From a virus, in the IMG/VR virus record IMGVR_UViG_3300046744_000381, positions 1-64,000 of that record: a DNA stretch of 64,000 nt. The stretch is one strand, 5' to 3'. The notes below the pieces were generated by a model. It was not told where the DNA came from. It saw nothing but the letters and a program-made list of their open reading frames with translations, and searched no databases. Of this stretch, positions 29,574-62,831 are shown in pieces (positions within the stretch are counted from its first letter, which is position 1; each line of letters opens with the position of its first letter). Both the position numbers and the translations under genes were made by a program.

Positions 29574-30191
29574 ATGGTCTTTATTTACGGATATATATGG
29601 TATTTGTTTGCGGCGTTAGTAGGAATAAGTATAGGATATCATAGATACTTTACACACAATACATTTAAAACAAATAGTATTGTAGAAATAATAATGTTAG
29701 TTTTAGGATTAATCTGCGGCGGTCGTAGTGCATTAACTTGGGCTGCTGTTCATCGAATGCATCACGCAAAATCAGATACTTTGCTAGATCCGCATAGCCC
29801 AAAATATCAAGGTGCTTGGAAAGTTTTGACTAGTAATTGGAAAGTAGAATATATACCTCGTAAATATATTACTAATTTATTAAAAAATCCACGTATAGTT
29901 TGGTTTCATAAAAACGGAAAATATTTACACTTATTAATTACACTTATTACAATTATTATAAGTGTAAAATTATTTTTTGTAATTGTTTTTGTTCCGTTTG
30001 TTTTATCTTGGCTGGGCTTCGGAATGTTGAATTATTTTGCCCACAAAGACGGAGAACCGCAAAATATTCCTGTGCTTAATTTAATTGCACCAGGCGAAGG
30101 ATGGCATTTAAACCATCATAAGCAACCGAAATCATATAAATTACACAAATACGATATAGCAGGAGTAGTTATTGAAAGATTTTTTACTTAA
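29574..30191 (+). CDS. membrane fatty acid desaturase (delta-9 type)
   Basis: His boxes GYHRYFTH, HRMHH and GEGWHLNHH, with transmembrane segments. Confidence 0.9.
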   Translation: MVFIYGYIWYLFAALVGISIGYHRYFTHNTFKTNSIVEIIMLVLGLICGGRSALTWAAVHRMHHAKSDTLLDPHSPKYQGAWKVLTSNWKVEYIPRKYITNLLKNPRIVWFHKNGKYLHLLITLITIIISVKLFFVIVFVPFVLSWLGFGMLNYFAHKDGEPQNIPVLNLIAPGEGWHLNHHKQPKSYKLHKYDIAGVVIERFFT

Positions 30192-30927
30192 ACAAAGTTT
30201 AGCAATTAGAACTCCAGTCCTGCCAGAAGTAGAAAAAGTTGTGAATTCTGTTACTTTGGATTTACACAGTATCTCTCCTTACAAAACAGATATAATCAAA
30301 TGGTTACGTCCCATTATAAATTTAGAAGGATATAGTGTATATCCTATGAACGGATGTACAGAAGGACTGAACTGGTGGTATAATCAGGAGTACAGAGGTG
30401 TACATATGGAACAAGGTGATTATCAGTGGATTAAACCGACCGATCGATATGGCAAGATAGTATACTTGAGCGTCCCTAGTGCAATTAACGGAAATTATAG
30501 AGAATTACCAATTGATGTTCCAATAGCACTAGATATAGCGTATGTTGGAAGCACTAAGATACAACATATACGCAAATTAGACAATGTTGAGTATGTTTTC
30601 TTTAGTTTGTCAAAAGCGTTCGGTTTACGCAATGTCCGAACAGGTTGGATATTTACAAAAACTCCGGATGAAAGATTAGAATCATTAACACACAGTGCAA
30701 AATATTATAATTATTATGCGCACAATATAGCAGAAAATGTAATAAGTAATTTTGATATTGACTATATACATAGTAAGTTATATAATAAACAAAAAGCAAT
30801 TTGTGAAGAATTAGATTTTGTACCAAGCGATAGTGTGTGGCTTGCTACAACTAAAAATAAAGAATACGCAAAATTTATGCGTGATGGAAAAACAGCAAGA
30901 ATATGCCTTGCAGAAAGTATAAAATGA
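30172..30927 (+). CDS. minimal PLP-dependent aminotransferase-like enzyme
   Basis: LDIAY and FFSLSKAFGLRNVRTG form a fold-I PLP lysine motif. Confidence 0.7.
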   Translation: MKDFLLKQSLAIRTPVLPEVEKVVNSVTLDLHSISPYKTDIIKWLRPIINLEGYSVYPMNGCTEGLNWWYNQEYRGVHMEQGDYQWIKPTDRYGKIVYLSVPSAINGNYRELPIDVPIALDIAYVGSTKIQHIRKLDNVEYVFFSLSKAFGLRNVRTGWIFTKTPDERLESLTHSAKYYNYYAHNIAENVISNFDIDYIHSKLYNKQKAICEELDFVPSDSVWLATTKNKEYAKFMRDGKTARICLAESIK

Positions 30928-31535
30928 AGAAACACGATTTACCGACAATTGCCAATTTAGGTTTGGATATTGATTTGCCGAGATTGCAAATGGAATGTGA
31001 TAACCTTGCAGAAAAGTTTATTGATGTAAGAAGTGCTAACCCTATGCTTTGTATGAATCACGAAGAATTAGTTAAAGATGTTTATGACAACTTTGAACAA
31101 ATTAATCTTACAGAACCAAGTGAAATACTGCCGTATGAACCTAGTATTAAAAAGCGTTTACAGCGTAGAGAAGAACACTTGTACAATGTACCAACAGATG
31201 CTTACAATGACAGTTATATCCAAACTATTGTAGAACAATGTAAAGCGCCTGCAAGCCGTGTACGCATCACTAAACTTGCTCCGGGTAAAGAGATACCTTT
31301 TCACGTAGACTACGATGTAGGGTACGCTGTGCGCTGCATATGCCCCATTTATAGTGATAATATGGTAATTAATAAATTTAAACGTAATGGCGAAGTAGAA
31401 GAATACGTGTTAGAAGCAGGTAATGCATACTTTTTAAACATTGGTTATCCTCACGCTGTTTACAATAACAGCGATAAGCCTCGTATTGCATTAATGTTTA
31501 GTTTAGACGGAACTGGCGATTTAGAACATTTATGA
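30924..31535 (+). CDS. 2OG-Fe(II) oxygenase, AspH-like
   Basis: RVRITKLAPG, FHVD, PHAVYN and PRIAL. Confidence 0.8.
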   Translation: MKKHDLPTIANLGLDIDLPRLQMECDNLAEKFIDVRSANPMLCMNHEELVKDVYDNFEQINLTEPSEILPYEPSIKKRLQRREEHLYNVPTDAYNDSYIQTIVEQCKAPASRVRITKLAPGKEIPFHVDYDVGYAVRCICPIYSDNMVINKFKRNGEVEEYVLEAGNAYFLNIGYPHAVYNNSDKPRIALMFSLDGTGDLEHL

Positions 31536-32170
31536 TAATTGGACTTGTGCCTGTTGGCGGTGATGCAACTAGATTAAACATTCCTTACAGTAAAGCAATG
31601 CTTCCACAAAAAGGGTTTGATTACTACAATCCTGTGATAAATCATTGTGTCCAAAATTTAATCAATACTGGTGTAGATAAAATTATTTTTGGACACGGTT
31701 GTGTCTTTAAACAAGATATACTTGCATATTATCAAAATAATATTTTTTGTCATTTATTAGAACAAAAAGGTCCTAGTGACGGCGGTAATAGATTTATTAA
31801 TAATGTATTTGAAAATTTTCCTGCCAAAGATTTTATTTTTTGCTTACCTGATACTATTACCACCGCTACACATTATAAAGATTTACTAATAAAAGATATT
31901 GTGGTTTGCGGAATGTATGACATTCCAAACTTTACAAAGGCCGACCGTCTTTTGAATAACGGAGAGTTTGATGTTAAAGCTTTAAAAAAGCAAACAAATA
32001 GTAATACAGGTTGGGGTACAATTAAATTTACCAAAACATCTTTACAAAATAAAATAACAAAAGAAATAGGTTGTTGGCTAAATGAACAAAAGTTTCAAAC
32101 AGTAACTAAAGGAAAAATGATAGATATAGGCACGTGGAAAGGCTACAATTATTATTTAAATAAATTTTAA
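31532..32170 (+). CDS. sugar nucleotidyltransferase-like protein
   Basis: LVPVGGDATRL...KAMLP, LPD and DIGT. Confidence 0.75.
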   Translation: MIIGLVPVGGDATRLNIPYSKAMLPQKGFDYYNPVINHCVQNLINTGVDKIIFGHGCVFKQDILAYYQNNIFCHLLEQKGPSDGGNRFINNVFENFPAKDFIFCLPDTITTATHYKDLLIKDIVVCGMYDIPNFTKADRLLNNGEFDVKALKKQTNSNTGWGTIKFTKTSLQNKITKEIGCWLNEQKFQTVTKGKMIDIGTWKGYNYYLNKF

Positions 32171-33217
32171 AGGCTCTATCCATTTGTATAGTGATTTTTT
32201 AGATAGTAAGTATTCTTTATTATATCTCAATGTATCTACATCCAACTCTATCCAATTATTTTGTTTCATCCTTTCGCAAGCACTTGTTATTTCTTTTAGT
32301 AGTAATTGTAATCTTACACTGTGATCTTTTTCAATGTCAAATTGCAAATCAAAATATTTGTCATACAATTTAAATCCCATTTCTTTTAAGTAGTGATTAA
32401 CACCAGGCTGCCCCCAAATTATTATAGGACGTTCATATAACATACTTTTCCATACTTTTTCTGTAATATAAAAACCAAAATCATCAATGCTAGTATCTTG
32501 TACTAAAATAAATTTATATTCAGACAAAAAATTACTAGAACTTTCTGTCCATTTTATTGCTTGGCTATGATTTGTAAAATCTTTTCTATCCATTACAAAA
32601 TCTTTGTTTAACACATTATGTGTATAATCTATTTTGTATTTTTTACATTGTTCTTGCATAGTTATATCGTCAATTTTAGATTGACTTAAATCTACAGGAA
32701 GTTGCCTAGAAACTAATTCGTAATTCATAACATTACGATACTCTCTTGGAAACCTACTAAAAGTAGCAAATTTATCATACTTAATTTTTGATACAACAAC
32801 ACTGCTATTGATAGATTGCGCCATTTGTATAAAAACAGGAAATGGATAAGTTTTAATTTTGTTTTTATACAAGTTACGGTTAAACCAATTAGTATAATTT
32901 TCGTATTCTTTATTTAGATTTGCCGTTAAAAGTATAACATTTAATTCAGGCACCTCATACTTTATACAGTCGTTATGAATTATTTCATATAGTTTTTCTA
33001 TGCCAAAACTTATCCAACTACAATCTAAAATTAATTTAGTTTCTTTGGCTCTTTTTAATTCATCTGATGTTAATTCACAAAACATATCACCATCGTGTTC
33101 CCAAAAATCATTAAGAGATTTACAAACATATTTTTTTAAAAACTGTAAACTGTCTAACCAATCTCGGTTATAACTCAAACCATCTGCTAATATGGTATCA
33201 GGAATAGGATAATTCAT
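32156..33217 (-). CDS. putative glycosyltransferase (GT10-like C-terminus)
   Basis: FYITEKVWKSM...PIIIWG...LKEMGFKLY. Paralogue of 58878..59957. Confidence 0.55.
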   Translation of the reverse strand: MNYPIPDTILADGLSYNRDWLDSLQFLKKYVCKSLNDFWEHDGDMFCELTSDELKRAKETKLILDCSWISFGIEKLYEIIHNDCIKYEVPELNVILLTANLNKEYENYTNWFNRNLYKNKIKTYPFPVFIQMAQSINSSVVVSKIKYDKFATFSRFPREYRNVMNYELVSRQLPVDLSQSKIDDITMQEQCKKYKIDYTHNVLNKDFVMDRKDFTNHSQAIKWTESSSNFLSEYKFILVQDTSIDDFGFYITEKVWKSMLYERPIIIWGQPGVNHYLKEMGFKLYDKYFDLQFDIEKDHSVRLQLLLKEITSACERMKQNNWIELDVDTLRYNKEYLLSKKSLYKWIEPLKFI

Positions 33218-33228
33218 AAAATATTTAG

Positions 33229-33257
33229 TTGACGTTTGGTTAAATATATGTTATTAT
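33229..33257 (+). promoter_or_regulatory. sigma70-type promoter, leaderless
   Basis: TTGACG-17-TATTAT, ATG at 33263. Confidence 0.6.
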
Positions 33258-33262
33258 GGCAT

Positions 33263-33922
33263 ATGTCAAATGTAGAAACAGATGTAAATTTGGAAATAAA
33301 AGTGTACGAAAACATAAACGTTAGAGAATACAATCCATCTGATAGAGATATAATTGAAAAATTTAGGATGTTAGCTAAACGTGACGGCAATGAAGCACTT
33401 GCCGGCGACAAATACGACCCTGACACAGTAAATGGACAAACTTGGATGACATTTGTAGAGGACGAGCTTGCAAGTGTAAGTGTCGTCGAACGTAGTCATT
33501 ACACAGGAGATCCAAAAATTGCAGGACGTATTTGTAGATATCATATTTTAAAAAAGTTTAGGCATAGTAATGCTGGGTTTCGTATGTTGCCAAATCAAGT
33601 ACAATGGGCAAAGGACAATGGACTAAAAGTATTATACTGGACACACGATGTAAACAACAAAGCATTAAATGCAATGTATCAAGGTAAAAAACGTATGGGT
33701 ATGCGAGGCGAATCTGTTCCGTATTTTATGACCGATACTTACCGTGCATTTAAATTACAACCTGATATGATTTTTAAAGTAAGTGAAAAATCTAACTTTT
33801 TACAATATGTATATGCAAACATATTAGATGAAAATTATGTATGGCGACCAGATTACAAAACTATTTTGTACTGTATGCATAATGGCACTATAGACGATTC
33901 AGTAAAAGCTGCTGTTCTATAG
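33263..33922 (+). CDS. GNAT-like acyltransferase
   Basis: CRYHILKKFRHSNAG...WAKDNGLKVLYW. Start trimmed from 33236. Confidence 0.55.
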   Translation: MSNVETDVNLEIKVYENINVREYNPSDRDIIEKFRMLAKRDGNEALAGDKYDPDTVNGQTWMTFVEDELASVSVVERSHYTGDPKIAGRICRYHILKKFRHSNAGFRMLPNQVQWAKDNGLKVLYWTHDVNNKALNAMYQGKKRMGMRGESVPYFMTDTYRAFKLQPDMIFKVSEKSNFLQYVYANILDENYVWRPDYKTILYCMHNGTIDDSVKAAVL

Positions 33923-34724
33923 AATCCTTAATGTAATCTGTTATACAAATTTTTTCACCTACGCTATTAAATGCCCACATCCAAATATCAGCAGGTATTA
34001 AATTGTTATCATTACAATATTTTTCTTGTAAGGGTTTTGCTATTTCTGTAATGTATGTTGCACGAAACTTAGGAAGTATAGTTTTTACAACTTCTGATGC
34101 TGTTGTATTAAAATAATTGTAACTATAGTATTGCCCTATTGGTAAAGTTAGAGTTTGTGGAAGGCTATCGGAAAATACAATACCTGCTCTAAAACCGGCC
34201 ATTAAGAAATTTTTACTTAAACTAAATGCAACTGCATCAAACACATCTAAACTAGTATCTAAAGTATCAAGTGTGCATCCATAAAAAGCACAATCTAAAA
34301 ATATTTTACAATTATTAGTTATACAATGATTTATTAAATTACTAAACCAATTAGTAATACCGCCTTCGTGATTAGGCTGACTTACTAATATGTAACTATT
34401 TGGCAAGATATTATCTATATCAGTTGGAGATATACAATAGTTTTTATATGGATCTAGTATACTGTAATAAAATTTATAATCTGTATCAAAATAATAAAAT
34501 TGATCATATTTACTGTGTATGTGAGCACATTGATGAGTTAGTGCCTCGTGTATACCATTACACATTGCCCACTCTTTTTTATTTTCGCAGCCACTAAAAT
34601 TTTTTATCCAGTCCATCCAATGTTTTTTATATAAAGAAACGTCTGTACCAGAACCTTTATTAACAAGATTAATTTTTTTTAATTCGTCTTTTATTGGTTT
34701 AGGACAAAAACTGTACACCGTCAT
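33888..34724 (-). CDS. minimal PLP-dependent aminotransferase-like enzyme
   Basis: SQPN, FLDCAFY and FSLSKNFLMAGFRAG. Confidence 0.7.
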   Translation of the reverse strand: MTVYSFCPKPIKDELKKINLVNKGSGTDVSLYKKHWMDWIKNFSGCENKKEWAMCNGIHEALTHQCAHIHSKYDQFYYFDTDYKFYYSILDPYKNYCISPTDIDNILPNSYILVSQPNHEGGITNWFSNLINHCITNNCKIFLDCAFYGCTLDTLDTSLDVFDAVAFSLSKNFLMAGFRAGIVFSDSLPQTLTLPIGQYYSYNYFNTTASEVVKTILPKFRATYITEIAKPLQEKYCNDNNLIPADIWMWAFNSVGEKICITDYIKDSIEQQLLLNRL

Positions 34725-35404
34725 ATTATATACTTTCTTTTTGGCAAATCAGGATTAACAAACATAGACAAATCTATATCAAATTTATTATATTCTATAT
34801 AATTATCCAATATGTTGTACATAATTTTATGGTTTGAATTTGTAAAGTGTCCTTTTCTTAGATCTAGTTTTCCTATATTATAATCTGTTTTCCAATATTT
34901 TTGTTCTTTGTCAAAAACATCACACAAGCAAAAATTGTTATCAAAACTGTCTTTAAAACCCGGAATATACAAAATATCTTTACGTAAGTTTTTTATGTAG
35001 TTGAGATATGAAATGTGTTGGAAATTTGAATATTCTGTGTTTTCAATATACTTGTAATAATATAAAGCAGCATCTAATATATCATTCCATCCTTGTTTTG
35101 CAGCATCTTCTTTCCAAAATGTGCTATACTCATAGTTTACAAAGTGTCTAGTCTTATTAGTATCTTTAATTGTTATTCTTCTAGGATGCGTGACTAAAAA
35201 AATAATTTTATCAAATCTCTCGTGTGTTTTTGTAAACTGTTCTGCAGAAAATAAAAGACTAGCACTCCATTCACAAAAGTTTGTTATGTCATATTTTTCA
35301 GAAAGTAATTCCCACCAACTTTGCTTTACAAAAGGATATTGTGAATAGTCTTTTACACCTATAGGGTTTGCACCAAAACTATCACCGTAAATTGCAATTT
35401 TCAT
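34721..35404 (-). CDS. SGNH/GDSL hydrolase-like protein
   Basis: IAIYGDSF and a C-terminal GHFTNSNH. Confidence 0.55.
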   Translation of the reverse strand: MKIAIYGDSFGANPIGVKDYSQYPFVKQSWWELLSEKYDITNFCEWSASLLFSAEQFTKTHERFDKIIFLVTHPRRITIKDTNKTRHFVNYEYSTFWKEDAAKQGWNDILDAALYYYKYIENTEYSNFQHISYLNYIKNLRKDILYIPGFKDSFDNNFCLCDVFDKEQKYWKTDYNIGKLDLRKGHFTNSNHKIMYNILDNYIEYNKFDIDLSMFVNPDLPKRKYII

Positions 35405-36140
35405 TTATAACCTCTGCTGCATTTTTGTGTGTTAACTTTCCAAAATGTAAAAAATCTCTTGCATCATCTAATTTAGGAAAAAAATCACACTTTAAAAGAT
35501 TTGCAGTTTCTTCAAAATAACTTGCTTGATAATAATTTGTTTTAGAACTCCAAAAGTGTTCACAAGCTAATGCTTCAAATTTAAAAAATTGTTGAGAATG
35601 AACAAGATTTTTATTCCATATTTTATACAAAACTTTCATATCATTGTTGTAATTATCCCAATGACTGCCAGACCAAGGTCCTATACGATTAATTTTATCA
35701 TCGGCGTAATATAATAATCTACCATAATCTGTCCATAATTGTATCACAGTATGCGGAATTCCAAAATTTTCAAAAAATTTAAGACTATTATGCCAACTAA
35801 AAATTGTGCTGGTGCCGCTTTGTCCAAGATTTATTACAGGTCTTTTTACAATATCACTCAATTGCTGGCAAATAGTTTCTTCAATAGCTAAAGCTTCTCC
35901 AAAGACTTGACTACAACCAAAAATCACAATAGAGTCTTCCCAATTTATGTCATTCCATTCGGCATCTCTATAAAAGTTAGAATTTAACTTGTAAGAAACT
36001 TCTTTATCATAATAATTCCATTGTGATCCTAATTGTGTTTTATTTTTCTCATAATCAGTTCTTTCTTGAATACTAAGATAATCAGGAAGTAAATTTCTAT
36101 TATAATTTTCAGCAAGAGGACCGTTAAGTAATTTATACAA
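35382..36140 (-). CDS. SGNH-like protein
   Basis: FGCSQVFG, INLGQSGTS and ARDFLHFG. Confidence 0.55.
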   Translation of the reverse strand: MYKLLNGPLAENYNRNLLPDYLSIQERTDYEKNKTQLGSQWNYYDKEVSYKLNSNFYRDAEWNDINWEDSIVIFGCSQVFGEALAIEETICQQLSDIVKRPVINLGQSGTSTIFSWHNSLKFFENFGIPHTVIQLWTDYGRLLYYADDKINRIGPWSGSHWDNYNNDMKVLYKIWNKNLVHSQQFFKFEALACEHFWSSKTNYYQASYFEETANLLKCDFFPKLDDARDFLHFGKLTHKNAAEVINENCNLR

Positions 36141-36675
36141 TTAAATTTCCTTTATCATACAAATCTTTTACTACGTCAAAAGTGTAAGGAGGCATAAAAC
36201 ACACACTAAAATTTATTCTAGGATGTTTGCTTTTTGTATTATCCACCCCGTGAGGAATATTTTTAAAAAGAATAGGATCTTTGTACATTACACTTTCAAT
36301 AATAGAACCATTGTGTTTTTGTTTCCAGTCTTGCCAGTCACCTTCAGATCCTTTCCAATCTGGCATATGATAAAAATCCAGTGTATTGTTTTTATAACTT
36401 TCGCTGCAAGGAATTAAAATTGCACAGGTTCTGCCATTGTCAACGTGAGGTGGCAAATACTCTCCTGCTCTACAGGCAACTAATAATCCCATATAACTCC
36501 AGATTGGCAATAATTGATCTTTTAACCATTGAGGTTCATATTGCTTGTAATACTGTACATATCCTCTATTTTCTTCTTCTGGTGCTATTTCTACCCATCC
36601 TGACTTGTCATCAACCACGGCTTTAATCTCATCATAGTCCACATATAGTTCTTTTAAGAAAACATAATTACTCAT
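36133..36675 (-). CDS. 2OG-Fe(II) oxygenase-like
   Basis: PHVD...PHGVDN...PR. Confidence 0.65.
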   Translation of the reverse strand: MSNYVFLKELYVDYDEIKAVVDDKSGWVEIAPEEENRGYVQYYKQYEPQWLKDQLLPIWSYMGLLVACRAGEYLPPHVDNGRTCAILIPCSESYKNNTLDFYHMPDWKGSEGDWQDWKQKHNGSIIESVMYKDPILFKNIPHGVDNTKSKHPRINFSVCFMPPYTFDVVKDLYDKGNLIV

Positions 36676-40101: not shown

Positions 40102-40104
40102 ATA

Positions 40105-40755: not shown

Positions 40756-40766
40756 AATACATCTCC

Positions 40767-44410: not shown

Positions 44411-44439
44411 ATTATAACACTCCTTAATTTATTTGTCAA
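44411..44439 (-). promoter_or_regulatory. consensus sigma70 promoter, leaderless
   Basis: Minus strand reads TTGACA-17-TATAAT-5 nt-ATG. Confidence 0.8.
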
Positions 44440-46427: not shown

Positions 46428-46456
46428 TGTAGTCTCCTGTATACAAACGTATTTAT

Positions 46457-47053: not shown

Positions 47054-47054
47054 A

Positions 47055-55063: not shown

Positions 55064-55084
55064 AATATGCGCACTTTACTTAGC

Positions 55085-55096
55085 TAAATATATTTA
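55085..55096. promoter_or_regulatory. palindromic TAAATATATTTA, putative bidirectional late promoter
   Basis: TAAATA on both strands between two divergent radical SAM genes. Confidence 0.5.
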
Positions 55097-56301: not shown

Positions 56302-57374
56302 GCTGCAAATGGATCAAATTTTGCTCCGCATTTTTCACTACAAACTCCTAATTTACCTTCTTTAATTGATTGTGCATTCCAACTATCTTCGATGCTTTTT
56401 AACAAAGGTCCGTCCATTACTTTTTTCATATCATTCATTATTACATTGATGCCGCCTTTGCCGCCTGCTTTATCAATATGATCCCATATTTGTTCTACTT
56501 TAGGATCTTTATGCCACCATTTATACATACGTCCAGCAGTCCAACAACAAGGCATTAGTAACCCTTCTGCTGTAATAAAAATATTTCCAGCGTCTTTGAC
56601 TTTGCATTTTATTTTAGCTACGTTGTAATAATCCATCATAGTGCCGTATTGTTTAGCAATCGTTTCTTGTTTTGCAAGTTCTTTATTTGCAAACTTTACT
56701 TCATTTGGCTTTGATAATGTTTGTGTTTTTTCGCCTTTACGATTTATAGCTTGATGTTTTTCTTTACCAGTCATTTTCTTAGTACTGTAGAAACGTCCTG
56801 TTTTTTTCTTTATAAACTTTTCACAACCCCATTCGTTTGCAAGACGTTCTGCTTCTTCTACTTGATGCTCGTTGTGTTGGAATATAATATAATCCCAACG
56901 TGCTCTACCGCCTGCTGCAATAAAAGCCTTCATATTTGTTTCAACTTTATCCCATTGTACATTTTGTCTATATAAATGATTTGTATCCTCTAGTCCGTCA
57001 ACACTAAAAATTACAGCACCGTTGCGGCCAAAAACTTGTGCAAGTTCCATCCACCAAGGCATATCTCTAGCGCCAGCATTGGTATTCATACTAAGCCACA
57101 TTGTAGGATTATGTTCTCTAAAATATTTGAATATTTCTAATGTATCTTTTGCAACTATAGGATCACCTAAGTTTCCACACATATACATAGTTTTTAATTG
57201 TTTAATAAAATCAGGTTTAAAAATTTTTTTTGCTTTTTGCAAAGTTATTTCAGCATTTGTTAAATGAGGATTGTCGTCACCACCATTCATATTCCTATCG
57301 CACATAGGACAGGCTGCTTGACATTTTTGTGTTATTTCTAAATGTACTTCTTTTACATCTTCATACTTATACAT
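56289..57374 (-). CDS. radical SAM protein with C-terminal twitch-like domain
   Basis: CQAACPMC, CGNLGDP and KC...PCCW...CSEKC. Confidence 0.9.
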   Translation of the reverse strand: MYKYEDVKEVHLEITQKCQAACPMCDRNMNGGDDNPHLTNAEITLQKAKKIFKPDFIKQLKTMYMCGNLGDPIVAKDTLEIFKYFREHNPTMWLSMNTNAGARDMPWWMELAQVFGRNGAVIFSVDGLEDTNHLYRQNVQWDKVETNMKAFIAAGGRARWDYIIFQHNEHQVEEAERLANEWGCEKFIKKKTGRFYSTKKMTGKEKHQAINRKGEKTQTLSKPNEVKFANKELAKQETIAKQYGTMMDYYNVAKIKCKVKDAGNIFITAEGLLMPCCWTAGRMYKWWHKDPKVEQIWDHIDKAGGKGGINVIMNDMKKVMDGPLLKSIEDSWNAQSIKEGKLGVCSEKCGAKFDPFAAQFS

Positions 57375-57796
57375 TCAATTTCCTCAAAACCACCTGCTGG
57401 TGTAAAATAATAGTTATCAAACTTTTTCATCTCTCTATGAAAAGATTGCATTTTATCTGCAGGGAATACAATACTTAAATTATTAACTATTCCTACTGAT
57501 TTGTCAAGAACTTTTTTTGCTTTATTATGAATACATCGTCCAAAATGAAATCCTCCTAACAATATTTTTTTATGTTTCAAATCCTGTAAATCACAGGAAT
57601 TAATTCCTTGAAACCAATCGGATATTTCTCTGCCACTACCATCAACAAAAATATCAGCATATCTTTCTAATTCCGGAATCATTGATTTTAAGTAATGAGA
57701 AAATGCAAAACATTGACTAAGAAGATCAGGAAACTGTTTTACATCTTCATCTTCACAATATTTCCAAGGATCTATTATTACAAACGCTGTTTTCAT
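57353..57796 (-). CDS. isochorismatase/cysteine hydrolase-like protein
   Basis: FVIIDPW and LLGGFHFGRCI. Confidence 0.5.
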   Translation of the reverse strand: MKTAFVIIDPWKYCEDEDVKQFPDLLSQCFAFSHYLKSMIPELERYADIFVDGSGREISDWFQGINSCDLQDLKHKKILLGGFHFGRCIHNKAKKVLDKSVGIVNNLSIVFPADKMQSFHREMKKFDNYYFTPAGGFEEIECISMKM

Positions 57797-58878
57797 TTAT
57801 TATTTCCATAATCTAGCCAAGGATTAAAATTATAGGCTTTTTCTATAGGAGGATCATCTGGATGAACCAATACATAAACACTAGGATTTTCATCTACTAT
57901 CCAGCCTCCGTGTTTTTTTACATAATACTGTACTAACAAACTATAACTTCCGTCAGTTAAATCTGTGTTTGATTTATAAGAATTACTACTAAATTTAATC
58001 TTGTTGCCGTACCGTAAAATATGCACCGCCATATTTTCGGCTTGCTTTTCTCTTGCTAGTGCTATGCCACCAAATAAATCATAACCTAAATTTAAATCTT
58101 CAGATAATTTACGCAATGCTATATTATCTCTCGGATGACAAGGACCACCGTCTCCCATACCGGCCTTCATATAAGCATTACTCATAATTCTTTTAGTGCT
58201 GTTTGCTAGTGCATCTGTTACTACATCCACATTAATGTTTCCTTTTTTTACAGCCACATCCTGTATCATATTAACAATACCGAGTTTTGTGCTTATAAAG
58301 GTGTTATAAAATACTTTAATACATTCGCATTCGTCCCAAGTACCGGTAACTATACTACAATCGTTTTCTGTAATACTTTGGTAGAATTCTTCAAGCAACA
58401 CATCCGGCTCGCCATTTTCTGTGCCAATCATAATCATTTCTGGATTCAACATATCATTTGCGACTGTTCCCATAGCAATTAAATAAGGATTATAACTTAA
58501 ATTGGTATTTGTTACTAAAGGTGAAATTTGTTCACGCATAACACCAGGAAGCACTGTACTAATAACAACTAATCTTTGATTACGATTCATATGTTTATTG
58601 CATTCAATTACTGCTTCTTTAAGTTGAGTGTAATCAAAATCTTTTGCTGGCAGATGTGTAATAGGCAGACTGCCGTCATATTCGGATTGATGAGGTGTAG
58701 CAACTGAAATAAAAACTATTTCTGCGCCGGAAACAGCTCCTTGTATATTAGGCCATAGCGTTATATGCTTGCTATGTTTTTTTATTTTATCGTATCCGTT
58801 AATACAATGACCTTTTTGAGCTGCTGCTTCTGCGCAAGGCATTCCTAACTTTCCTAATCCTATAAAACTAACGTTCAT
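57793..58878 (-). CDS. UDP-glucose/GDP-mannose dehydrogenase family
   Basis: GLGKLG, SVATP, STVLPG, KVFYNTFISTK and GDGGPCHPRD. Confidence 0.9.
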   Translation of the reverse strand: MNVSFIGLGKLGMPCAEAAAQKGHCINGYDKIKKHSKHITLWPNIQGAVSGAEIVFISVATPHQSEYDGSLPITHLPAKDFDYTQLKEAVIECNKHMNRNQRLVVISTVLPGVMREQISPLVTNTNLSYNPYLIAMGTVANDMLNPEMIMIGTENGEPDVLLEEFYQSITENDCSIVTGTWDECECIKVFYNTFISTKLGIVNMIQDVAVKKGNINVDVVTDALANSTKRIMSNAYMKAGMGDGGPCHPRDNIALRKLSEDLNLGYDLFGGIALAREKQAENMAVHILRYGNKIKFSSNSYKSNTDLTDGSYSLLVQYYVKKHGGWIVDENPSVYVLVHPDDPPIEKAYNFNPWLDYGNNK

Positions 58879-59957
58879 TAAACTGCTCCATTGGTAATTA
58901 AATTAAAATTATCGTACGTGGCATTTTTATTGTAAAGAACATTATATAACTCGAAATTATGTTTTACACGTTCAGCCATTTGATTTCTAATTTTAATTAA
59001 ATGTTTTTCGTCGTATGTAGAAAATCTTTTTAAATTATCAACTATAATTTGTATCCTTGTTTGTAACGGCAAATCAAAATCATACGACTCGTCAATCCAA
59101 GGAGCAAATGTATAGTAACCTAAATCTCGCATCCTATCCAGTGTTCCAGGGCATCCTAAATTGATAAAGGGCATTCCTATTGCAGGAGCTTTAAAAGATT
59201 TTTCTGTAAGAAACATTTTATTATTATCAACCCAAGTTTCTGTATTTAGAAATAAAAAACTATATTTGCATTGTTTTGGAAATTTATAAACAGGATTCAC
59301 ATTTTTTAGATCCGGTTCATCTAAAATGTCGAATTTAAAATTTTTAAAATTTGTTTCAGGATGTTGTTCATAATATTGATACATTTGTTCATAAGCATCA
59401 GCAAAAGTAGTATATCCATATTTTGCTAGATTGTTTTCAAAAATCTTTTCTATAAGTGATGCTCTATGATATCTATAGGCTCTATTTAAATTCATATATA
59501 TTTTTTTTGGTTTATACTTTACTACATTTTTTACTGGCTCTAAAAATTTATAAAATATAGGATTAGTAATATGAATTATGTTCGGGTCGTTTGTTTTACA
59601 TTTTTCTGGGGAAACAATATAAATTTTTGATTGAATAAATTTGCTTATGCGTTTTACAGTTTCAATTAATGTTTTATTTGATTCTAGTAAATCGCATATT
59701 ACAATTTTATTTTTTTCTTTCTCTAAAAAATCTTTATGTCTATTTAAAAATCCAATGATTTCAAATTCCCATTTATCAATGTATATCTGGTCTTCGCTGT
59801 TTATATAAAAAATAGGAATAATTTTTGGATAATCATCATCACGTTTTGTATAAACGATTTCTGTATTAGCTTCCTTCAAGTAATCATCTGTAAAATCTAG
59901 TTGAGCATATCTTGTTTGGTCTTCGTCAAACAATAAAATAATATTTTTATCTTTCAT
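58878..59957 (-). CDS. putative glycosyltransferase (GT10-like C-terminus)
   Basis: LNRAYRYHR and ET...FLTEKSFK...PFINLG...LGYYTF..WIDESYD. Confidence 0.55.
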   Translation of the reverse strand: MKDKNIILLFDEDQTRYAQLDFTDDYLKEANTEIVYTKRDDDYPKIIPIFYINSEDQIYIDKWEFEIIGFLNRHKDFLEKEKNKIVICDLLESNKTLIETVKRISKFIQSKIYIVSPEKCKTNDPNIIHITNPIFYKFLEPVKNVVKYKPKKIYMNLNRAYRYHRASLIEKIFENNLAKYGYTTFADAYEQMYQYYEQHPETNFKNFKFDILDEPDLKNVNPVYKFPKQCKYSFLFLNTETWVDNNKMFLTEKSFKAPAIGMPFINLGCPGTLDRMRDLGYYTFAPWIDESYDFDLPLQTRIQIIVDNLKRFSTYDEKHLIKIRNQMAERVKHNFELYNVLYNKNATYDNFNLITNGAV

Positions 59958-60171
59958 AAATTAATTTTATATCCTTACCGGGGCCAACTTTACTTGGTAA
60001 ATCTCCATATTGTTCAATATACCATTCTATTACAGCTATGTACCATTTTTGACTATTGTGATGCGCTTTTTTATTAAACTGCCAAATATTATCATTTGTT
60101 GCTTGCATAGTACTCAAAGCTCTAGCACTTTCTTTCTGCATTTCTCTTAATGTCAAATTACTTAAATCCAA
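59947..60171 (-). CDS. hypothetical protein
   Basis: 74 aa, coupled to neighbours. Confidence 0.7.
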   Translation of the reverse strand: MDLSNLTLREMQKESARALSTMQATNDNIWQFNKKAHHNSQKWYIAVIEWYIEQYGDLPSKVGPGKDIKLIYER

Positions 60172-61204
60172 TTTTCATAAACCTTTTGTACTTTGGCAAT
60201 TCTAATTCGCCTTCATATAACACAGTTGTCATTGGTAACTTATCACTAAACTCTTTTAAATCCTTGCTGCAATTGACGTGTTCTTCAATCTCAAAATAAT
60301 CGTTTCCTTGTACAACAATTAATTTGCCATCTGGTATTCTATTGTACCATTCTGTAAAATTATGTATATGTTCGGAACTTGTATTGATTATAGTATCCGG
60401 CGTGTCCCATAATAATTCTTCTTCACCGTTTGATTTATAAACACGATAAACGTGATCGTCATTGAAGTTTATATCGTGTATATCTTGAACACTTGCTTTA
60501 AATTTCCAATCATCCACTACCCATTTTTTATTAAATATTTCTGCAATAGTAGGACAACTATTATCAACATCAAAACTTCTAATTTTTATAACATCTAAAT
60601 TGTTTTCAAACATCATTGTTGCAAGTGTTCCATACCAGCCTGCACACAAAAAAACTGTTCCTAAACTCATACTTGTTTTTTTAAGTTCGTCTATTAACCA
60701 TAACTTACTTTCAAGTTGTCCTCTACTAAAGCAATCTTCGTCAAACTTAATTTCTTTTTCCAGCAATGTTTTAAAAGCATATACAAACTGACTATTAGTA
60801 TAGTGTTCTAATAATCTCCATAAATCATAATAGTTGTCATTTAACACTAATCCTTTTAAATCTTTGCTTTTTAAAATCCTAAATATACTGTGTATATTTT
60901 TGTCAAGTACAGCTTTACGTAAATCTTCAGTGCCAGGTAATAATCTAAATAAGCTATGCAAGTTTTCTTCAAGTACCGCTTTACGTAAATCTTCAGTTTC
61001 TCCAATTATGCGTTTATTATCAATTACACGAAATATACTATGCCAATTTTCTTCCATTACAGCTTTGCGCAAATCTTCATTACAATCCGATAATTTAAAT
61101 ATGCTTGTTAAATCTTGATCAATATATGCTCTGCGGAGATCTGAAAGACGCTCATCGTGTTTGTACAATAGCTCAAATCTGTCTAGTAACTTATAAATTT
61201 CCAT
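60158..61204 (-). CDS. class I SAM-dependent methyltransferase-like protein with N-terminal helical repeats
   Basis: LCAGWYG, SFDVD, INTSSEH and QGNDY. EDLRKAV repeats. Confidence 0.65.
   Translation of the reverse strand: MEIYKLLDRFELLYKHDERLSDLRRAYIDQDLTSIFKLSDCNEDLRKAVMEENWHSIFRVIDNKRIIGETEDLRKAVLEENLHSLFRLLPGTEDLRKAVLDKNIHSIFRILKSKDLKGLVLNDNYYDLWRLLEHYTNSQFVYAFKTLLEKEIKFDEDCFSRGQLESKLWLIDELKKTSMSLGTVFLCAGWYGTLATMMFENNLDVIKIRSFDVDNSCPTIAEIFNKKWVVDDWKFKASVQDIHDINFNDDHVYRVYKSNGEEELLWDTPDTIINTSSEHIHNFTEWYNRIPDGKLIVVQGNDYFEIEEHVNCSKDLKEFSDKLPMTTVLYEGELELPKYKRFMKIGFK
60904..61080 (-). repeat. three intragenic repeats encoding EDLRKAV...HSxFR
   Basis: Near-identical caagtac-gctttacgtaaatcttcagt at 60904 and 60970, with a third copy near 61061. 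Confidence 0.85.
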
Positions 61205-62831
61205 TAAACTTTTCTCTTAACCAGTCAAAGTCGTTTATCATTTTCAGTAATTCAATATTTCCTTTGTTAGCACTTCCGTACATTGTACCTTCTTTTGCAC
61301 CTTTTATTGCAAAATCTCCAAATGGTTTATCACGCCCAATTGATGACCAAATTTTAAGACGTCTATCAGTTTCAACATCTTTTTGTCTATCAATTACTTT
61401 ACTACTTAGCTTACAACATTCTCTAAAGGCACTTTTCCAAGTTTCGAATTCTCCTGTATTAAACGCAGTAATATTAGATACTTGTTGTATTGCTCTAAAT
61501 TTAGAACTAATGCTTGTTGTCATATCTGGCTTACTAGTATCCATATCAATTGTTGCTTGCCTTGGGAATAATTTTACTCCGCCGTATCCATACACTAGCC
61601 CGTTAATGGGATTTCTACTACGCCAAACGTGAACGTGATCCCATTGCCAAACAGGAACTTGATAATTAAAATCAAAATCTTCAATTATATTAGCATCACC
61701 GTCTACGATATAAAACATTGATGTTGTACACTGCTTTGCAGCTTCTATGTGTGCTTGGTGTATGCCTTTGACACCGTGTACACGCTTTGCATTAGGAACC
61801 TTTTCTTTGAGAAGACTATAATTTTCATCAGCATTTGGTTCTTGATAACTTATGAATACAACGTCATACGGCTTAGGATTACTAATTACTTTATTATGTT
61901 CTTTTTTATTTGCTATGAACATAAATTGCCATTCTCTTTGACTAATTTTACAATGTTTACTACATAATACAACACCGTCGTGATATTCACCATTAAGATA
62001 TACGTGATTAATTTTCCTATCATATTCATTATCAAATGTAAAATATTCATCAAAAGTATAATCATCAACTAATTCAATATGGGCAGGAACTACATAAAAC
62101 AGTTCTGTTTCTGATTTTTCTAATGCTTGTAAATAATCTTCATAACTGTCAACAAAATAAATTTCATATTTTGCAGGACCTGAACCTGTTTGGCTCCATT
62201 CTTTACGTGCTACAGGAAATCTGTAATCAACTTCTTTTTTTGTTAAAGGCCGATTTTTACTACATAAAAATAAACCATTATATAATTTTTTGTCGTTTAC
62301 TTGATGCACAAATGCGTGATTCTGTTGTCGTAAATCTGACTTATGATGTGTTATGTAAAAGTCTTTAACTAGATTAGTGGCTTGTATATTTTTACTACTC
62401 ATCCAAAACATTTGTGTTTTAGACTTTTCTAATGCAACACTATATTCTTCATAACTATCTATTTCAAAATAATCAAATGACTTTGGTGTACTTGCAGTAA
62501 TTTCAACAAATTTTTTATTAATAAAAAATCTATAATCAATTTCTTTTTGTGAAATTTTTGATGTTTTTGGTACAAGACTTATGCCATCGTAATCATCGCC
62601 GTTTAAAAACATATGCACATATTTTTGACTCCATTCGTCAGGTTCATAATCAAAATGAAAGTCATCATTTATAACCAAGTCAGGATACACTATCCAAAAG
62701 AAGTTAGTAATACAACTTGCCTGTGCTTGTTCTATTGTTTCAGCACATTTAAGGGTCGGTATCTTAGATTTTAGAGCTTTTAACTCAGCTTGATACAAAT
62801 TTTTGTTTGCAATTAGATAAACATCGTACAT
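61191..62831 (-). CDS. GT-A glycosyltransferase-like protein with tandem degenerate domains
   Basis: C-terminal YDVVFISY...GVKGIHQAH...FYIVDGDA, preceded by three related upstream units. Confidence 0.65.
   Translation of the reverse strand: MYDVYLIANKNLYQAELKALKSKIPTLKCAETIEQAQASCITNFFWIVYPDLVINDDFHFDYEPDEWSQKYVHMFLNGDDYDGISLVPKTSKISQKEIDYRFFINKKFVEITASTPKSFDYFEIDSYEEYSVALEKSKTQMFWMSSKNIQATNLVKDFYITHHKSDLRQQNHAFVHQVNDKKLYNGLFLCSKNRPLTKKEVDYRFPVARKEWSQTGSGPAKYEIYFVDSYEDYLQALEKSETELFYVVPAHIELVDDYTFDEYFTFDNEYDRKINHVYLNGEYHDGVVLCSKHCKISQREWQFMFIANKKEHNKVISNPKPYDVVFISYQEPNADENYSLLKEKVPNAKRVHGVKGIHQAHIEAAKQCTTSMFYIVDGDANIIEDFDFNYQVPVWQWDHVHVWRSRNPINGLVYGYGGVKLFPRQATIDMDTSKPDMTTSISSKFRAIQQVSNITAFNTGEFETWKSAFRECCKLSSKVIDRQKDVETDRRLKIWSSIGRDKPFGDFAIKGAKEGTMYGSANKGNIELLKMINDFDWLREKFNGNL

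Follow-up and report, generated by a model that had tools for sequence, protein, structure and literature searches.

A viral record of 137 kb carries, in its first 64 kb (64,000 nucleotides, hereafter the window), an enzyme-dense island that is native to an uncultured marine giant phage. The island does not form one 33-kb pathway, as an initial annotation had proposed; instead, a conserved core (43284 to at least 67215, past the earlier island end) is joined to a separate hypervariable hotspot (29574-43327). A sugar-pathway core accompanied by such a hotspot is the best explanation of the whole, with a probability of roughly 0.5, and the same even odds apply to a soluble sugar-tailoring pathway with its acceptor in the virion fibres or the host envelope.

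Phage origin, layout and promoters

The island is a real part of a phage, as indicated by its synteny in related phage records and by an avoidance of CATG common to the whole 64-kb window (0 occurrences observed, 263 expected), which also points to long residence of the island genes in phage genomes. Since the record is only 38% complete, the whole genome is probably jumbo-sized; the nearest relatives of its DNA polymerase are jumbo myophages.

Between 29574 and 62831 we counted 40 ORFs of at least 147 aa and one conserved 74-aa ORF, with overlaps at 31 of the 41 gene junctions. These had been described as about 39 consecutive ORFs, nearly all enzymes; profile or fold support backs 25 of the 40. 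The reported lack of a scaffold synthase or transporter was borne out by four Pfam scans, which detected no NRPS/PKS or transporter domain. TM-like segments occur in the desaturase alone among the island proteins, so the pathway would be cytoplasmic.

Fibre-like sequence lies to the left, where tail-fibre PHROGs match the C-terminus of 27605-29539, in agreement with the earlier placing of the island between fibre genes. The right boundary had to be moved. A fibre-like repeat protein on the plus strand (62898-64346, in the window up to 64000) is inserted in the module, which resumes outside the window with a sixth N-terminal-twitch radical SAM gene (64919-66292) and a GT-A paralogue (66292-67215). 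The family of this fibre-like gene was found in 35 of 80 loci, and the motif ATAAATA, present upstream of it here, precedes it in 24 loci.

With regard to the late-type motifs initially noted, ATAAATA is depleted (10 copies versus 46 expected) and 8 of the 10 copies lie 17-36 nt ahead of a start codon. The canonical T4 late box TATAAATA is absent (0 occurrences versus 14 expected), and perfect sigma-70 consensus promoters (TTGACA-N17-TATAAT; 4 matches in the window versus 0.15 expected) stand at all three transcription-unit starts: 29540-29568 on the plus strand, ahead of the plus-strand unit 29574-32170; 44411-44439 on the minus strand, ahead of 43284-44405 and the variable block; and 62838-62866, heading the minus-strand core unit. 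Such promoters suggest early expression, a point counted against the sugar reading below: host-directed functions would suit it no less than decoration of the virion.

The conserved core

Core gene order is retained across 80 related viral loci, whose maps give the fixed succession GT-A protein, methyltransferase, 74-aa ORF, two type C radical SAM genes, N-terminal-twitch gene, PP-loop gene and, further on, the type B1 radical SAM gene (43284-44405; PF04055, 55 bits), the final core gene before the variable genes. Two core enzymes are better conserved than DNA polymerase: the product of 52566-53972 is 84% identical in the relative G002 and 83% in G001, and that of 43284-44405 84% and 71%, versus about 75-77% and 56-60% for the polymerase. 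The proposed diversification by paralogue shuffling thus fails for the core. A comparison of related genomes had been suggested as a check for hypervariability and a conserved core; the former was found for 29574-43327, the latter from 43284 on.

Within the window the core genes lie on the minus strand, apart from 55096-56301. All nine radical SAM proteins claimed for the island were confirmed. Five are full members of NF033640, with N-terminal twitch domains: 44429-45757 (366.5 bits, cut-off 170), 47577-48797 (240 bits), 51308-52573 (209.2 bits), 52566-53972 (424.4 bits) and 55096-56301 (250.4 bits). The fourth is the most conserved protein of the region (81-94% identity in 80 viral loci; 2194 homologues). 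Type B2 (49323-50501; PF04055, 43.4 bits) is a paralogue of type B1. The two type C proteins, 53969-55063 (16.8 bits; ATAAATA upstream at 55091) and 56289-57374 (27.7 bits; 63% identity in G002, 54% in G001), fall below the PF04055 cut-off of 29.5 bits, which the other seven exceed, and are backed by NCBIfam matches (W_rSAM_matur, E 6e-9, for the former) and by their 33% identity to each other.

Among the remaining core proteins, the short SDR-like protein (48785-49339; adh_short, E 0.001) has a median identity of 73% in 37 loci and homologues in 10 bacterial loci. The PP-loop ATP-pyrophosphatase (50491-51393) was called correctly: SGGxDS and a QueC-like four-Cys site (C245/C274/C277/C280) are invariant in the alignment, and its AF2 model (pLDDT 80.6) has NcsA/TtuA (E 7e-6) and QueC (TMt 0.64-0.70) as top Foldseek matches, with no match to PF06508. 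The segment 57353-59957 encodes a 147-aa protein without family, a dehydrogenase of the UDP-glucose/GDP-mannose family (57793-58878; PF03721 and PF00984) and a 359-aa protein (58878-59957) paralogous to 32156. The conserved 74-aa protein (59947-60171) contains no Cys, has no Pfam match at E up to 5 and is specific to the phage lineage; the only two contigs bearing it among bacterial-collection loci both resemble this lineage. The methyltransferase-like protein (60158-61204), with short N-terminal repeats, was assigned from an Atlas lead (0.93, Methyltransf_31) and 26% identity to an annotated methyltransferase of phage Mosig (E 3e-10); it is present in 65 of the 80 loci by family clustering and in 71 by tblastn.

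The multi-domain protein 61191-62831 retains an intact DxD in its C-terminal domain, and three degenerate N-terminal copies were recognised by eye. Its GT-A fold is predicted from the model of its paralogue 66292-67215 (pLDDT 82), which Foldseek matched to SunS/ThuS and the PBCV-1 capsid glycosyltransferase (E 6e-4; TM 0.26-0.37) and VIA to GT-A/nucleotidyltransferase folds with Z 8-9, where a Z near 8 can reflect a common arrangement. The D..D motif is invariant in the GT-A alignment (A4), and no Pfam GT family was matched. Of three genes initially called GT-like, this one stands, and 32156 and 58878 lack profile support.

The core is interrupted by a strain-specific minus-strand insert (45777-47549) encoding a nitroreductase (45777-46427; PF00881) and two proteins without family. 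Close copies (96-99%) occur in just one of the 80 loci. ATAAATA motifs at 46450 and 47571 lie ahead of two of the three insert genes, those whose start codons are at 46427 and 47549, respectively.

The hypervariable hotspot

Gene content of the hotspot differs even in the nearest relative (G006), which has just three of its genes in common. Homologues of the variable block were absent from the fetched parts of G001 and G002, and 236 of 366 protein families were confined to one record by family clustering. The plus-strand unit encodes a membrane FA_desaturase-family protein (29574-30191; PF00487, 43.1 bits; four TM-like segments) with 39-42% identity to an FA_desaturase-domain protein of Pelagibacter phage Mosig, a PLP-like protein (30172-30927) paralogous to 33888 by BLAST, an Asp/Arg-hydroxylase-type cupin (30903-31535; PF05118, 29.5 bits) and a nucleotidyltransferase-like protein (31532-32170; NTP_transferase, E 0.03). 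It is followed by a block of 17 minus-strand genes (32156-43327) with one plus-strand gene (33236-33922). Pfam identified PF05118 cupins (36672, 38894, 40767, 41515), a SET protein (38419-38910) and a nitroreductase (40105-40755) in this block, together with two SDR-like paralogues, a weak aminotransferase-like protein, a weak GNAT and eight genes without family.

Several initial calls were upheld by profiles, namely SET, desaturase, NDP-sugar dehydrogenase and both nitroreductases (55% identical to each other). Others are weaker: GNAT (22.1 bits, cut-off 20.7), the two PLP proteins (20.0 versus 19.7 for one, BLAST paralogy for the other), three SDR-like paralogues (adh_short, E 0.001 and 0.04), the nucleotidyltransferase and the methyltransferase. 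Of about nine supposed 2OG-Fe(II) oxygenases, five match PF05118, four of them over the cut-off; five further candidates (36133, 37986, 39442, 42617 and 47055) show an HxD...H motif by eye, and an iterated cupin HMM failed to pick them up (hhalign probability below 2%). The two SGNH calls and the sulfotransferase-like one obtained no profile support.

This turnover raises the strongest competing explanation, which we regard as unlikely though worth serious weight: no single pathway would exist, and at least the variable part would be a hyperplastic region gathering independent, early-expressed, host-directed auxiliary genes, for example for lipid or lipid-A remodelling (desaturase, LpxO/OlsC-type hydroxylases) or redox chemistry. 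In its favour, the GC content of the block (28.5-31.7%) is below the 35-38% found upstream, its units are headed by perfect sigma-70 promoters, and the 72 proteins of the relatives' variable regions include FA_desaturase (4), FA_hydroxylase, P450, TauD (3) and Asp_Arg_Hydrox (8). The 'host recognition cluster' of pelagimyophages, a comparable island, is read as serving host surface alteration and co-infection avoidance in the accessible text of its description (PMC7029224). Against this explanation stand the tight gene coupling, the recurrence of the same few families, the long phage residence that CATG avoidance implies and the highly conserved core, which it leaves unexplained.

The sugar-tailoring reading and its alternatives

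In the sugar-tailoring reading, the core comprises soluble enzymes: six N-terminal-twitch and two further types of radical SAM protein (two genes each), a QueC/TtuA-like PP-loop enzyme, a short SDR, a methyltransferase, GT-A-fold transferases and a UDP-sugar dehydrogenase. An NDP-sugar would first be made and oxidised in the cytoplasm, and radical chemistry would then alter it by epimerisation, dehydration, oxidation or C-methylation; the PP-loop enzyme may amidate or thiolate an acid group, and after methylation the GT-A proteins would transfer the sugar. The hotspot and the insert 45777-47549 would represent exchangeable cassettes, whose Fe/2OG-type hydroxylases, flavin nitroreductases, SDRs, SET protein and desaturase may vary the product or have different targets in host or virion. 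As acceptor, virion fibre proteins are possible though doubtful, a host envelope glycan or lipid is slightly less probable still, and something else takes the remaining odds.

The dehydrogenase, the GT-A-fold protein with its invariant DxD, whose best structural matches are peptide- (SunS/ThuS) and capsid-glycosylating (PBCV-1) transferases, and the bacterial sugar neighbours make the glycan pathway, already proposed initially, the best-supported reading. N-terminal-twitch genes were found at 74 loci in a prokaryote genome collection, three of which resemble misbinned contigs of this phage lineage. Co-located with them are type B (31) and type C (43) radical SAM, PP-loop (9), SDR (10), PLP-like (16-17), methyltransferase (11), GT-A (10) and dehydrogenase (3) genes. 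The core families cluster in Bdellovibrionota chromosomes, adjoining GT2 and sugar-nucleotide genes. GT2 is the top other neighbour (7 of 140 representatives), followed by B12-radical SAM, carbamoyltransferase, epimerase/GDP-mannose dehydratase, CMP-sugar-type cytidylyltransferase and DegT aminotransferase. Counted against the sugar reading are the minority of GT2 and sugar genes among these neighbours (7, 2, 2 and 2 of 140; 188 families matched), the modest GT-A scores, the island's lack of an initiating transferase, flippase or exporter, and a literature search that found no paper on NF033640. Peptides, moreover, are frequent substrates of SPASM/twitch enzymes, and the classical targets of SET and Asp/Asn-hydroxylase families are proteins or lipids.

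These last points lead to a second alternative, which we consider rather improbable, in which radical SAM enzymes, cupin hydroxylases and SET act directly on side chains of fibre proteins or peptides (RiPP-like cross-links, hydroxylation, methylation) around no central sugar. The SPASM-type N-terminal domain, the TPR fusions of two family members, the classically protein-modifying PF05118 and SET families and the fibre-like genes interleaved with the module are in line with it. So are the NCBIfam secondary matches of the radical SAM genes, mostly to peptide maturases and all far below cut-offs. SunS/ThuS, the best structural matches of the GT-A protein, likewise modify peptides. However, no precursor-like peptide was seen (the sole conserved small ORF is Cys-free and evenly conserved), no PqqD/RRE match was obtained at E up to 5, and leader peptidase and exporter are lacking. 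The top 25 bacterial neighbour families contain GT2 and sugar-nucleotide genes, not RiPP hallmarks, and a UDP-sugar dehydrogenase accompanies N-terminal-twitch genes in phage and Bdellovibrio alike, the product of 57793-58878 scoring 340 bits against such a neighbour in Bdellovibrio sp. HCB2-146.

Nearest PP-loop folds act on nucleobases or tRNA, and a deazaguanine module upstream lacks QueC (QueE-like gene at 16057-16950; no PF06508 in the 137-kb record), both counted against the sugar reading. PP-loop and radical SAM enzymes might elaborate a 7-deazapurine or another base, a nucleobase or DNA hypermodification complementing that module, as the QueC-like fold and four-Cys site, the conservation of two core enzymes above DNA polymerase and the accessible text on phage CP220, with 11 radical SAM genes and fully ADG-substituted DNA (PMC2853527, PMC10516641), would allow; this is the least probable alternative, since a QueC role needs one PP-loop copy whereas two to three are present in other loci and none in the fetched part of G002, the bacterial homologues adjoin GT2 and sugar genes, the deazaguanine module lies 35 kb off under its own promoter, and the type C and methyltransferase genes are common to phage Mosig.

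In Mosig, a cultured SAR11 phage, homologues of the desaturase, cupins, nitroreductases, type C radical SAM (a 'MoaA-like' gene, 26% identical to 56289-57374) and methyltransferase adjoin the tail genes, in the company of genes for an ArnB-like aminotransferase, carbamoyltransferase and epimerase. The earlier statement that no phage system of this kind is characterised holds only as far as characterisation goes: islands of this type are in print, in the consulted parts of PMC7029224 and PMC2853527, which describe the pelagimyophage host recognition cluster and, for Campylobacter phages CP220/CPt10, 11-12 radical SAM genes.

Enzyme content and limits of the island

CATG was absent from both strands of the entire 64-kb window (0 copies versus 263 expected). 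Since the island at 29574-62831 shares this genome-wide absence, it is not a misassembled cellular fragment, and the claim that it is real and phage-borne holds. The accompanying list of enzymes was partly mis-described. About 39 ORFs had been announced, and we found 40 ORFs of at least 147 aa together with a conserved 74-aa ORF (59947-60171); 31 of the 41 gene junctions overlap, and 25 of the 40 ORFs have profile or fold support. Pfam and NCBIfam agreed with the initial annotation on nine radical SAM genes, seven of which passed the PF04055 cut-off (29.5 bits). The other two, which like all genes below are named by their start, are 56289 (27.7 bits) and 53969 (16.8 bits); both carry a CxxxCxxC motif near the N-terminus, as seen by eye, along with NCBIfam radical SAM matches. 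The two nitroreductases were backed by the same databases, which also matched the SET protein, the fatty-acid desaturase and the UDP-glucose/GDP-mannose dehydrogenase. Matches were weak or indirect for the two PLP proteins (an aminotransferase-like protein and its paralogue), for three SDR-like paralogues, and for the GNAT, nucleotidyltransferase and methyltransferase assignments. About nine 2OG oxygenases had been counted: five cupins match the Asp/Arg-hydroxylase family (PF05118, cut-off 22.6 bits), with 30903, 38894, 40767 and 41515 above the cut-off and 36672 at 21-22 bits, and five further candidates failed in iterated HMM and hhalign comparisons and were rejected as cupins at the profile level. 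Neither Pfam nor PHROGs profiles supported the two 'SGNH' proteins, the 'sulfotransferase-like' protein or two of the three 'GT-like' proteins. Ten unknown island proteins had no PHROGs family, and the extra hints given by Pfam at E up to 5 were all weak. Only the desaturase carries membrane-type (TM-like) segments, so that the enzyme set is cytoplasmic and without an exporter of its own.

All-against-all BLAST sorted the nine radical SAM genes into three types: N-terminal-twitch (N-twitch; five in the window, 44429, 47577, 51308, 52566 and 55096), type B (43284 and 49323) and type C (53969 and 56289). The five N-twitch proteins are full-length members of NF033640 (366.5, 240, 209.2, 424.4 and 250.4 bits, respectively; cut-off 170), as is the product of 64919-66292, beyond the window (300.7 bits against the same cut-off); this full-length membership is what they have in common with the catalogue entry, N_Twi_rSAM. 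In the N-twitch alignment, C146/C150/C153 of the CxxxCxxC motif and C28/C90/C93 are invariant, and PF13186 (SPASM) matched the N-terminus of 47577, 52566 and 55096. The N-twitch genes thus encode an N-terminal Cys-rich, twitch/SPASM-like domain ahead of CxxxCxxC, whose cluster sites are predicted from the sequence. NF033640 is an uncharted family with no known reaction, matching 5893 clusters (50% identity) at E up to 1e-30. A full-text phrase search, as far as titles and abstracts go, gave no paper on the family, and a look-up of N-twitch cluster members gave no informative names. When compared with the PDB, the family profile returned generic radical SAM matches only (8vpo, viperin, BlsE and SkfB), and the fusion partners of 10 long members were either TPR repeats or a second radical SAM copy. 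Head-to-tail double enzymes were common among representatives of about 800 aa, and P0132 and P0133 are among the TPR-fused or double members. The three radical SAM genes of Vibrio phage K566 lie amid hypothetical proteins, an uninformative setting.

Among the other proteins, the product of 66292-67215, a paralogue of the C-terminal domain of 61191 (61191-62831), gave a GT-A/nucleotidyltransferase-type model (pLDDT 82.4), and the DxD aspartates D65 and D67 are invariant in 13 sequences. At the head of the Foldseek ranking were the SunS/ThuS glycocin S-glycosyltransferases together with the capsid glycosyltransferase of PBCV-1 (E 6e-4; probability 0.99-1.0, TM 0.26-0.37), the PBCV-1 structures 2p6w, 2p72 and 2p73 being among the top matches. 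VIA gave Z scores of 8-9, a range graded middling by the tool. At E up to 0.01, neither 61191-62831 nor 66292-67215 matched any Pfam family, GT families included, and the Atlas lead towards GT2 reached just 0.86. These data constitute moderate evidence that both proteins have a predicted GT-A fold. The PP-loop ATP-pyrophosphatase model (pLDDT 80.6) resembles the tRNA thiolases NcsA/TtuA and QueC, and SGGxDS and four cysteines (C...CxxCxxC) are invariant in this protein. It matched neither the QueC profile nor, by phmmer, any PDB entry, and a profile search of the PDB recovered the P-loop motif only (E ~0.04). The QueC-like fold and putative metal site are therefore to be taken as a resemblance, NcsA/TtuA scoring equally well. 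The product of 60158-61204 is methyltransferase-like in sequence; three to four repeats of about 20 residues (EDLRKAV..N.HS.FR) were seen by eye at its N-terminus.

The right boundary at 62831 proved to be wrong. Past a fibre-like gene (62898-64346) come the N-twitch gene 64919-66292 and the GT-A paralogue 66292-67215. Ten proteins further downstream (64-78 kb) gave Pfam hints of E1_FCCH and Peptidase_G2 only. The weak matches to E1_FCCH and the Peptidase_G2 autoproteolytic domain are located just past the island, at 70916-72097 and 72119-73624 (L092 8916-10097 and 10119-11624), and three paralogous proteins at 72119-77653 have common N-termini, as in exchangeable fibres or spikes. On the left side, tail-fibre PHROGs match residues 480-605 of the 644-aa product of 27605-29539, most of whose length is covered by protease PHROGs and by a phage family without known function. 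This candidate protease-bearing fibre shows 82% identity to its counterpart in the nearest relative.

A conserved core beside a hypervariable block

The window covers the opening 64 kb of an IMG/VR virus record of 136,876 bp. Because this record is rated 38% complete (CheckV), the whole genome is probably jumbo-sized. The family-B DNA polymerase (2695-5376) is closest to those of jumbo myophages (Sinorhizobium phage Phosso 50%, Agrobacterium Atu_ph07 44%, Vibrio 2.275.O 43% and E. coli 121Q-like 41% identity), and megablast with window segments of 8 kb and 24 kb found no isolate phage at the DNA level. In this jumbo lineage the island is located between a replication/DNA-modification module and a fibre module. 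The lineage is present in many marine metagenomes, and the key enzyme 52566 (52566-53972) has 2194 homologues, on contigs of up to 354 kb. Three contigs with the gene order of the lineage (L123, L138 and L141: GT-A, methyltransferase, 74-aa ORF, type C, type B and N-twitch, with fibre genes) were found in MAGs named Neisseriaceae, Crocinitomicaceae and Gammaproteobacteria MED685. Most likely phage DNA was misbinned here, so that they give no host evidence; host labels taken from these mutually discordant names were rejected.

An IMG/VR scan with 52566 recovered 172 relatives, and the best 80 of the 172 loci, in which this protein is 81-94% identical, were compared. The single 33-kb island described initially split into a conserved core, from 43284 to at least 67215, and a hypervariable remainder (29574-43327 plus an insert at 45777-47549). 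Gene order in the core was fixed in the maps, which covered 23 of the 80 loci. From the fibre genes inwards it runs GT-A, N-twitch, a small gene and a fibre-like gene, GT-A, methyltransferase, 74-aa ORF, two type-C genes, N-twitch, PP-loop, N-twitch, PP-loop, the second type-B gene, SDR, N-twitch and, further on, the first type-B gene (rB1, 43284-44405), which is followed by variable genes and the replication module. The 80 loci contained 297 N-twitch and 179 type-C genes; the family sizes of 302 and 181 include the window's own five and two. Two large records, G001 (246 kb) and G002 (106 kb), belong to the same lineage (DNA polymerase 60% and 77% identical to that of the window). By BLASTP against these two, identities were 56/75% for the polymerase, 83/84% for 52566 and 71/84% for 43284. 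Both core enzymes are thus better conserved than the DNA polymerase. This tighter constraint on two radical SAM enzymes indicates that the core product is probably central to infection.

Other genes gave a very different picture. For 30172-43327, 45777-47549, 57353 and 58878, the retrieved portions of G001 and G002 contained no convincing homologue. In G006, the nearest relative traceable into the variable block (rB1 92% and 52566 94% identical), only the three genes adjacent to rB1 are shared (88%, 75% and 93%), about nine others being unrelated or distant; none of six in G008 was orthologous, and in locus L067 three unassigned ORFs after rB1 lead to replication-module genes. Overall, 236 of the 366 protein families occurred in a single record, and the GC content of the variable block is 28.5-31.7%, against 35-38% upstream. 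Such figures are what one would expect if the variable part were an unconnected collection of auxiliary genes. Set beside them is the content of the relatives' variable regions, which reuse the same kinds of enzymes as the block in the window: Pfam assigned, among 72 proteins, Asp_Arg_Hydrox (8), radical SAM (7), B12-binding (4), FA_desaturase (4) and TauD (3), with one each of P450, FA_hydroxylase, nitroreductase, GNAT and sulfotransferase, the B12-binding and radical SAM domains most likely lying on the same proteins. We consider an unconnected collection to be somewhat unlikely.

Four perfect TTGACA-N16-18-TATAAT promoters are present in the window (0.15 expected), at 29540 on the plus strand before 29574, at 62838 on the minus strand before the core, at 44411 on the minus strand before rB1 and the variable block, and at 7621-7649 before the gene 7671-8399. 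The T4 late box TATAAATA was found 0 times in the window versus 14 expected. ATAAATA is depleted five-fold (10 copies versus 46 expected in the window), and eight of its 10 copies (19652, 25489, 40774, 42121, 46450, 47571, 55091 and 62874) are located 17-36 nt upstream of start codons, including those of both fibre-like genes and five island genes. This motif is likely to be the late-promoter core of the lineage. Across the 80 loci compared, GT-A is preceded by a perfect sigma-70 box in nine and rB1 in six, and the fibre-like gene by ATAAATA in 24. Because perfect sigma-70 promoters head its units, the island looks readable by unmodified host polymerase, with additional internal late-type starts. 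Marine RNA-seq libraries from two studies, some of them oligo-dT libraries, contain short contigs identical to core genes (49323-59667). These contigs were not retained as evidence of expression, the shares being small (0.05-0.12) and DNA carry-over possible.

Related phage islands

The initial annotation knew of no characterised phage system of this kind. Islands of this type are already in print as uncharacterised systems. Pelagi- and cyanomyophages have a hypervariable host recognition cluster (HRC; Zaragoza-Solas et al. 2020, PMC7029224), which averages 44.6 kb in pelagimyophages. Tail fibres and glycosyltransferases are encoded there alongside UDP-glucose dehydrogenase and radical SAM cassettes, and the authors interpreted the cluster as a means of host O-chain modification. 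The likeness lies in a large hypervariable island tied to tail-fibre genes, which combines glycosyltransferases with LPS-type sugar genes, UDP-glucose dehydrogenase among them, and with radical SAM cassettes varying among close relatives; Asp/Asn beta-hydroxylase is frequent. Tail-fibre genes, glycosyltransferases, LPS-type sugar genes and radical SAM cassettes were all found here, and 29574-43327 and 45777-47549 are hypervariable in the same manner. In contrast, a large share of the present island is a strongly conserved core. The published HRC is also placed differently, with VrlC on one side and gp14 on the other, in T4-like (Kyanoviridae-type) phages whose genomes measure about 140-200 kb; the present island does not occupy this position, the polymerase being nearest to those of jumbo phages Phosso, Atu_ph07 and 121Q (41-50%). 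No protein of the record matched the VrlC region of Pelagibacter phage Mosig by tblastn.

When four island genes were searched against isolate phages, Mosig EXVC030M (MT647606) was the only match for three of them and, for the fourth, the top-scoring of four records matched. Its island, at about 59.7-73.4 kb, is annotated with FA_desaturase, Asp_Arg_Hydrox, two nitroreductases, three 'MoaA-like' radical SAM proteins, an ArnB-like aminotransferase, a carbamoyltransferase, a methyltransferase and an epimerase, directly followed by tail/baseplate genes. The two islands resemble each other in the desaturase (39-42%), cupins (37-42%), nitroreductases (26-27%), type-C radical SAM (26%) and methyltransferase domain (26%). 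They differ in that, at the thresholds applied, Mosig yielded no homologue of the N-twitch, type-B or PP-loop genes, and that it adds the ArnB-like aminotransferase and carbamoyltransferase. The Mosig genome announcement (PMC7892664) leaves the region undiscussed.

Campylobacter phages CP220 and CPt10 carry 11-12 radical SAM genes in a large T4-like genome (Timms et al. 2010, PMC2853527), and a central module that is interchangeable contains five of these genes. They belong to another phage lineage with another host, and the authors proposed metabolic help at low oxygen; the accessible text describes no GT-A, methyltransferase or PP-loop partners (PMC2853527). A weak type-C homologue (23% identity) was detected in these phages. 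Finally, virion proteins of chlorovirus PBCV-1, with its A64R protein, and of mycobacteriophages are glycosylated in the cytoplasm by virus-encoded enzymes, and in such systems soluble GT-A enzymes are encoded beside structural genes. The present island shows the same arrangement for its predicted GT-A proteins. To our knowledge these virion-glycosylation systems contain no radical SAM enzymes. What merits further work in this island is its conserved core, along with the N-twitch family, still uncharted, and the link to Bdellovibrionota.

A candidate sugar pathway and its bacterial relatives

We propose, with a probability of about 0.5, that the core encodes a cytoplasmic NDP-sugar pathway. 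The NDP-sugar would be oxidised by the dehydrogenase and SDR proteins and edited by radical SAM chemistry; an activated carboxylate would then be amidated or thiolated by the PP-loop enzyme, and the sugar methylated and finally transferred by the GT-A proteins. Oxidation of aminoglycoside sugars is an established activity of twitch-type radical SAM enzymes such as BtrN. The main reason for favouring a sugar substrate is the recurrence of sugar genes beside the same enzyme set in bacteria. A search with the N-twitch family alignment, using one genome per prokaryote species, gave 236 relatives, of which 74 loci were kept. About 60 of these are titled Bdellovibrionota (a count of record titles), some on contigs of up to 3.04 Mb. 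NF033640 passed its cut-off in 19 of the 101 sampled genomes of the Bdellovibrionota phylum, with up to 11 copies, and in three of the 201 genomes in the phylum of Poseidonocella, each count including the centre genome, picked as a carrier; none of 14 control genomes was positive. The N-twitch genes of the 74 loci were accompanied by type B (31), type C (43), PP-loop (9), SDR (10), PLP-like (16-17), methyltransferase (11), GT-A (10) and dehydrogenase (3) families, totals in which the phage-lineage contigs L123, L138 and L141 are counted. These contigs were left out of the neighbour census, in which 140 representatives of 246 other neighbours were assigned by Pfam. GT2 was the commonest family (7 of 140), and B12-binding radical SAM, carbamoyltransferase, epimerase/GDP-mannose dehydratase, CTP_transf_3, DegT aminotransferase, methyltransferases and Asp_Arg_Hydrox were found twice each. 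Sugar genes are a minority of the neighbours, which are suggestive of a sugar substrate and not decisive. The Bdellovibrionota clusters are variable and multi-paralogue, like the phage island, and share with it N-twitch, types B and C, PP-loop, SDR, PLP-like, GT-A, methyltransferase and UDP-sugar dehydrogenase genes; the phage dehydrogenase matched that of Bdellovibrio sp. HCB2-146 with 340 bits. They differ in being chromosomal, in adjoining GT2, B12-radical SAM and sugar-nucleotide genes, and in having neither the 74-aa protein nor fibre genes.

Candidate acceptors of such a sugar are virion fibres and the host envelope. Fibre genes adjoin and interleave with the core, and its constraint exceeds that of the polymerase, both of which point to virion fibres. 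The sigma-70 promoters, the desaturase and LpxO/OlsC-type hydroxylases, together with the published interpretation of the HRC, point to the host envelope. If a radically edited glycan were present on virions or infected cells, it would represent both a new layer of phage-host recognition and new carbohydrate radical enzymology.

Instead of a sugar, the enzymes might modify a protein directly. The 74-aa ORF, which encodes no Cys and is 64-82% identical over its full length, is the sole conserved small ORF in a survey for RiPP precursors that was systematic from 50 aa upwards. Pfam found no RRE/PqqD, leader peptidase or exporter in the 40 ORFs or in the 74-aa ORF (E up to 5), and none of the top 25 neighbour families in bacteria is a RiPP hallmark. 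Direct protein modification is considered unlikely. A nucleobase or DNA role, linked to the QueC-less deazaguanine module upstream, is improbable. In its favour, a QueE-like gene is located at 16057-16950, and the QueC profile (PF06508), which passed its cut-off in 12 of 14 control genomes, matched nothing in the 137-kb record at E up to 1.

Extending the NDP-sugar pathway further is quite speculative. The N-twitch set could be an unrecognised radical sugar-editing system shared by two groups that prey on Gram-negative cells, marine jumbo phages of cosmopolitan distribution and Bdellovibrionota. Each paralogue would make a different C-H-level change (epimer, deoxy, keto or C-methyl) to a glycan on the predator's attack surface, here the phage fibres, and the hydroxylase and reductase cassettes would diversify it into a combinatorial coat for recognition or evasion. 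The Bdellovibrio enzyme set could make this chemistry testable without the uncultured phage, one carrier being titled as a strain and not as a MAG. In this genome of 3.9 Mb (Bdellovibrio sp. HCB2-146, G009, which holds locus L140), seven N-twitch genes over the cut-off and further radical SAM matches are grouped within about 37 kb (G009:C1:1858482-1894914).
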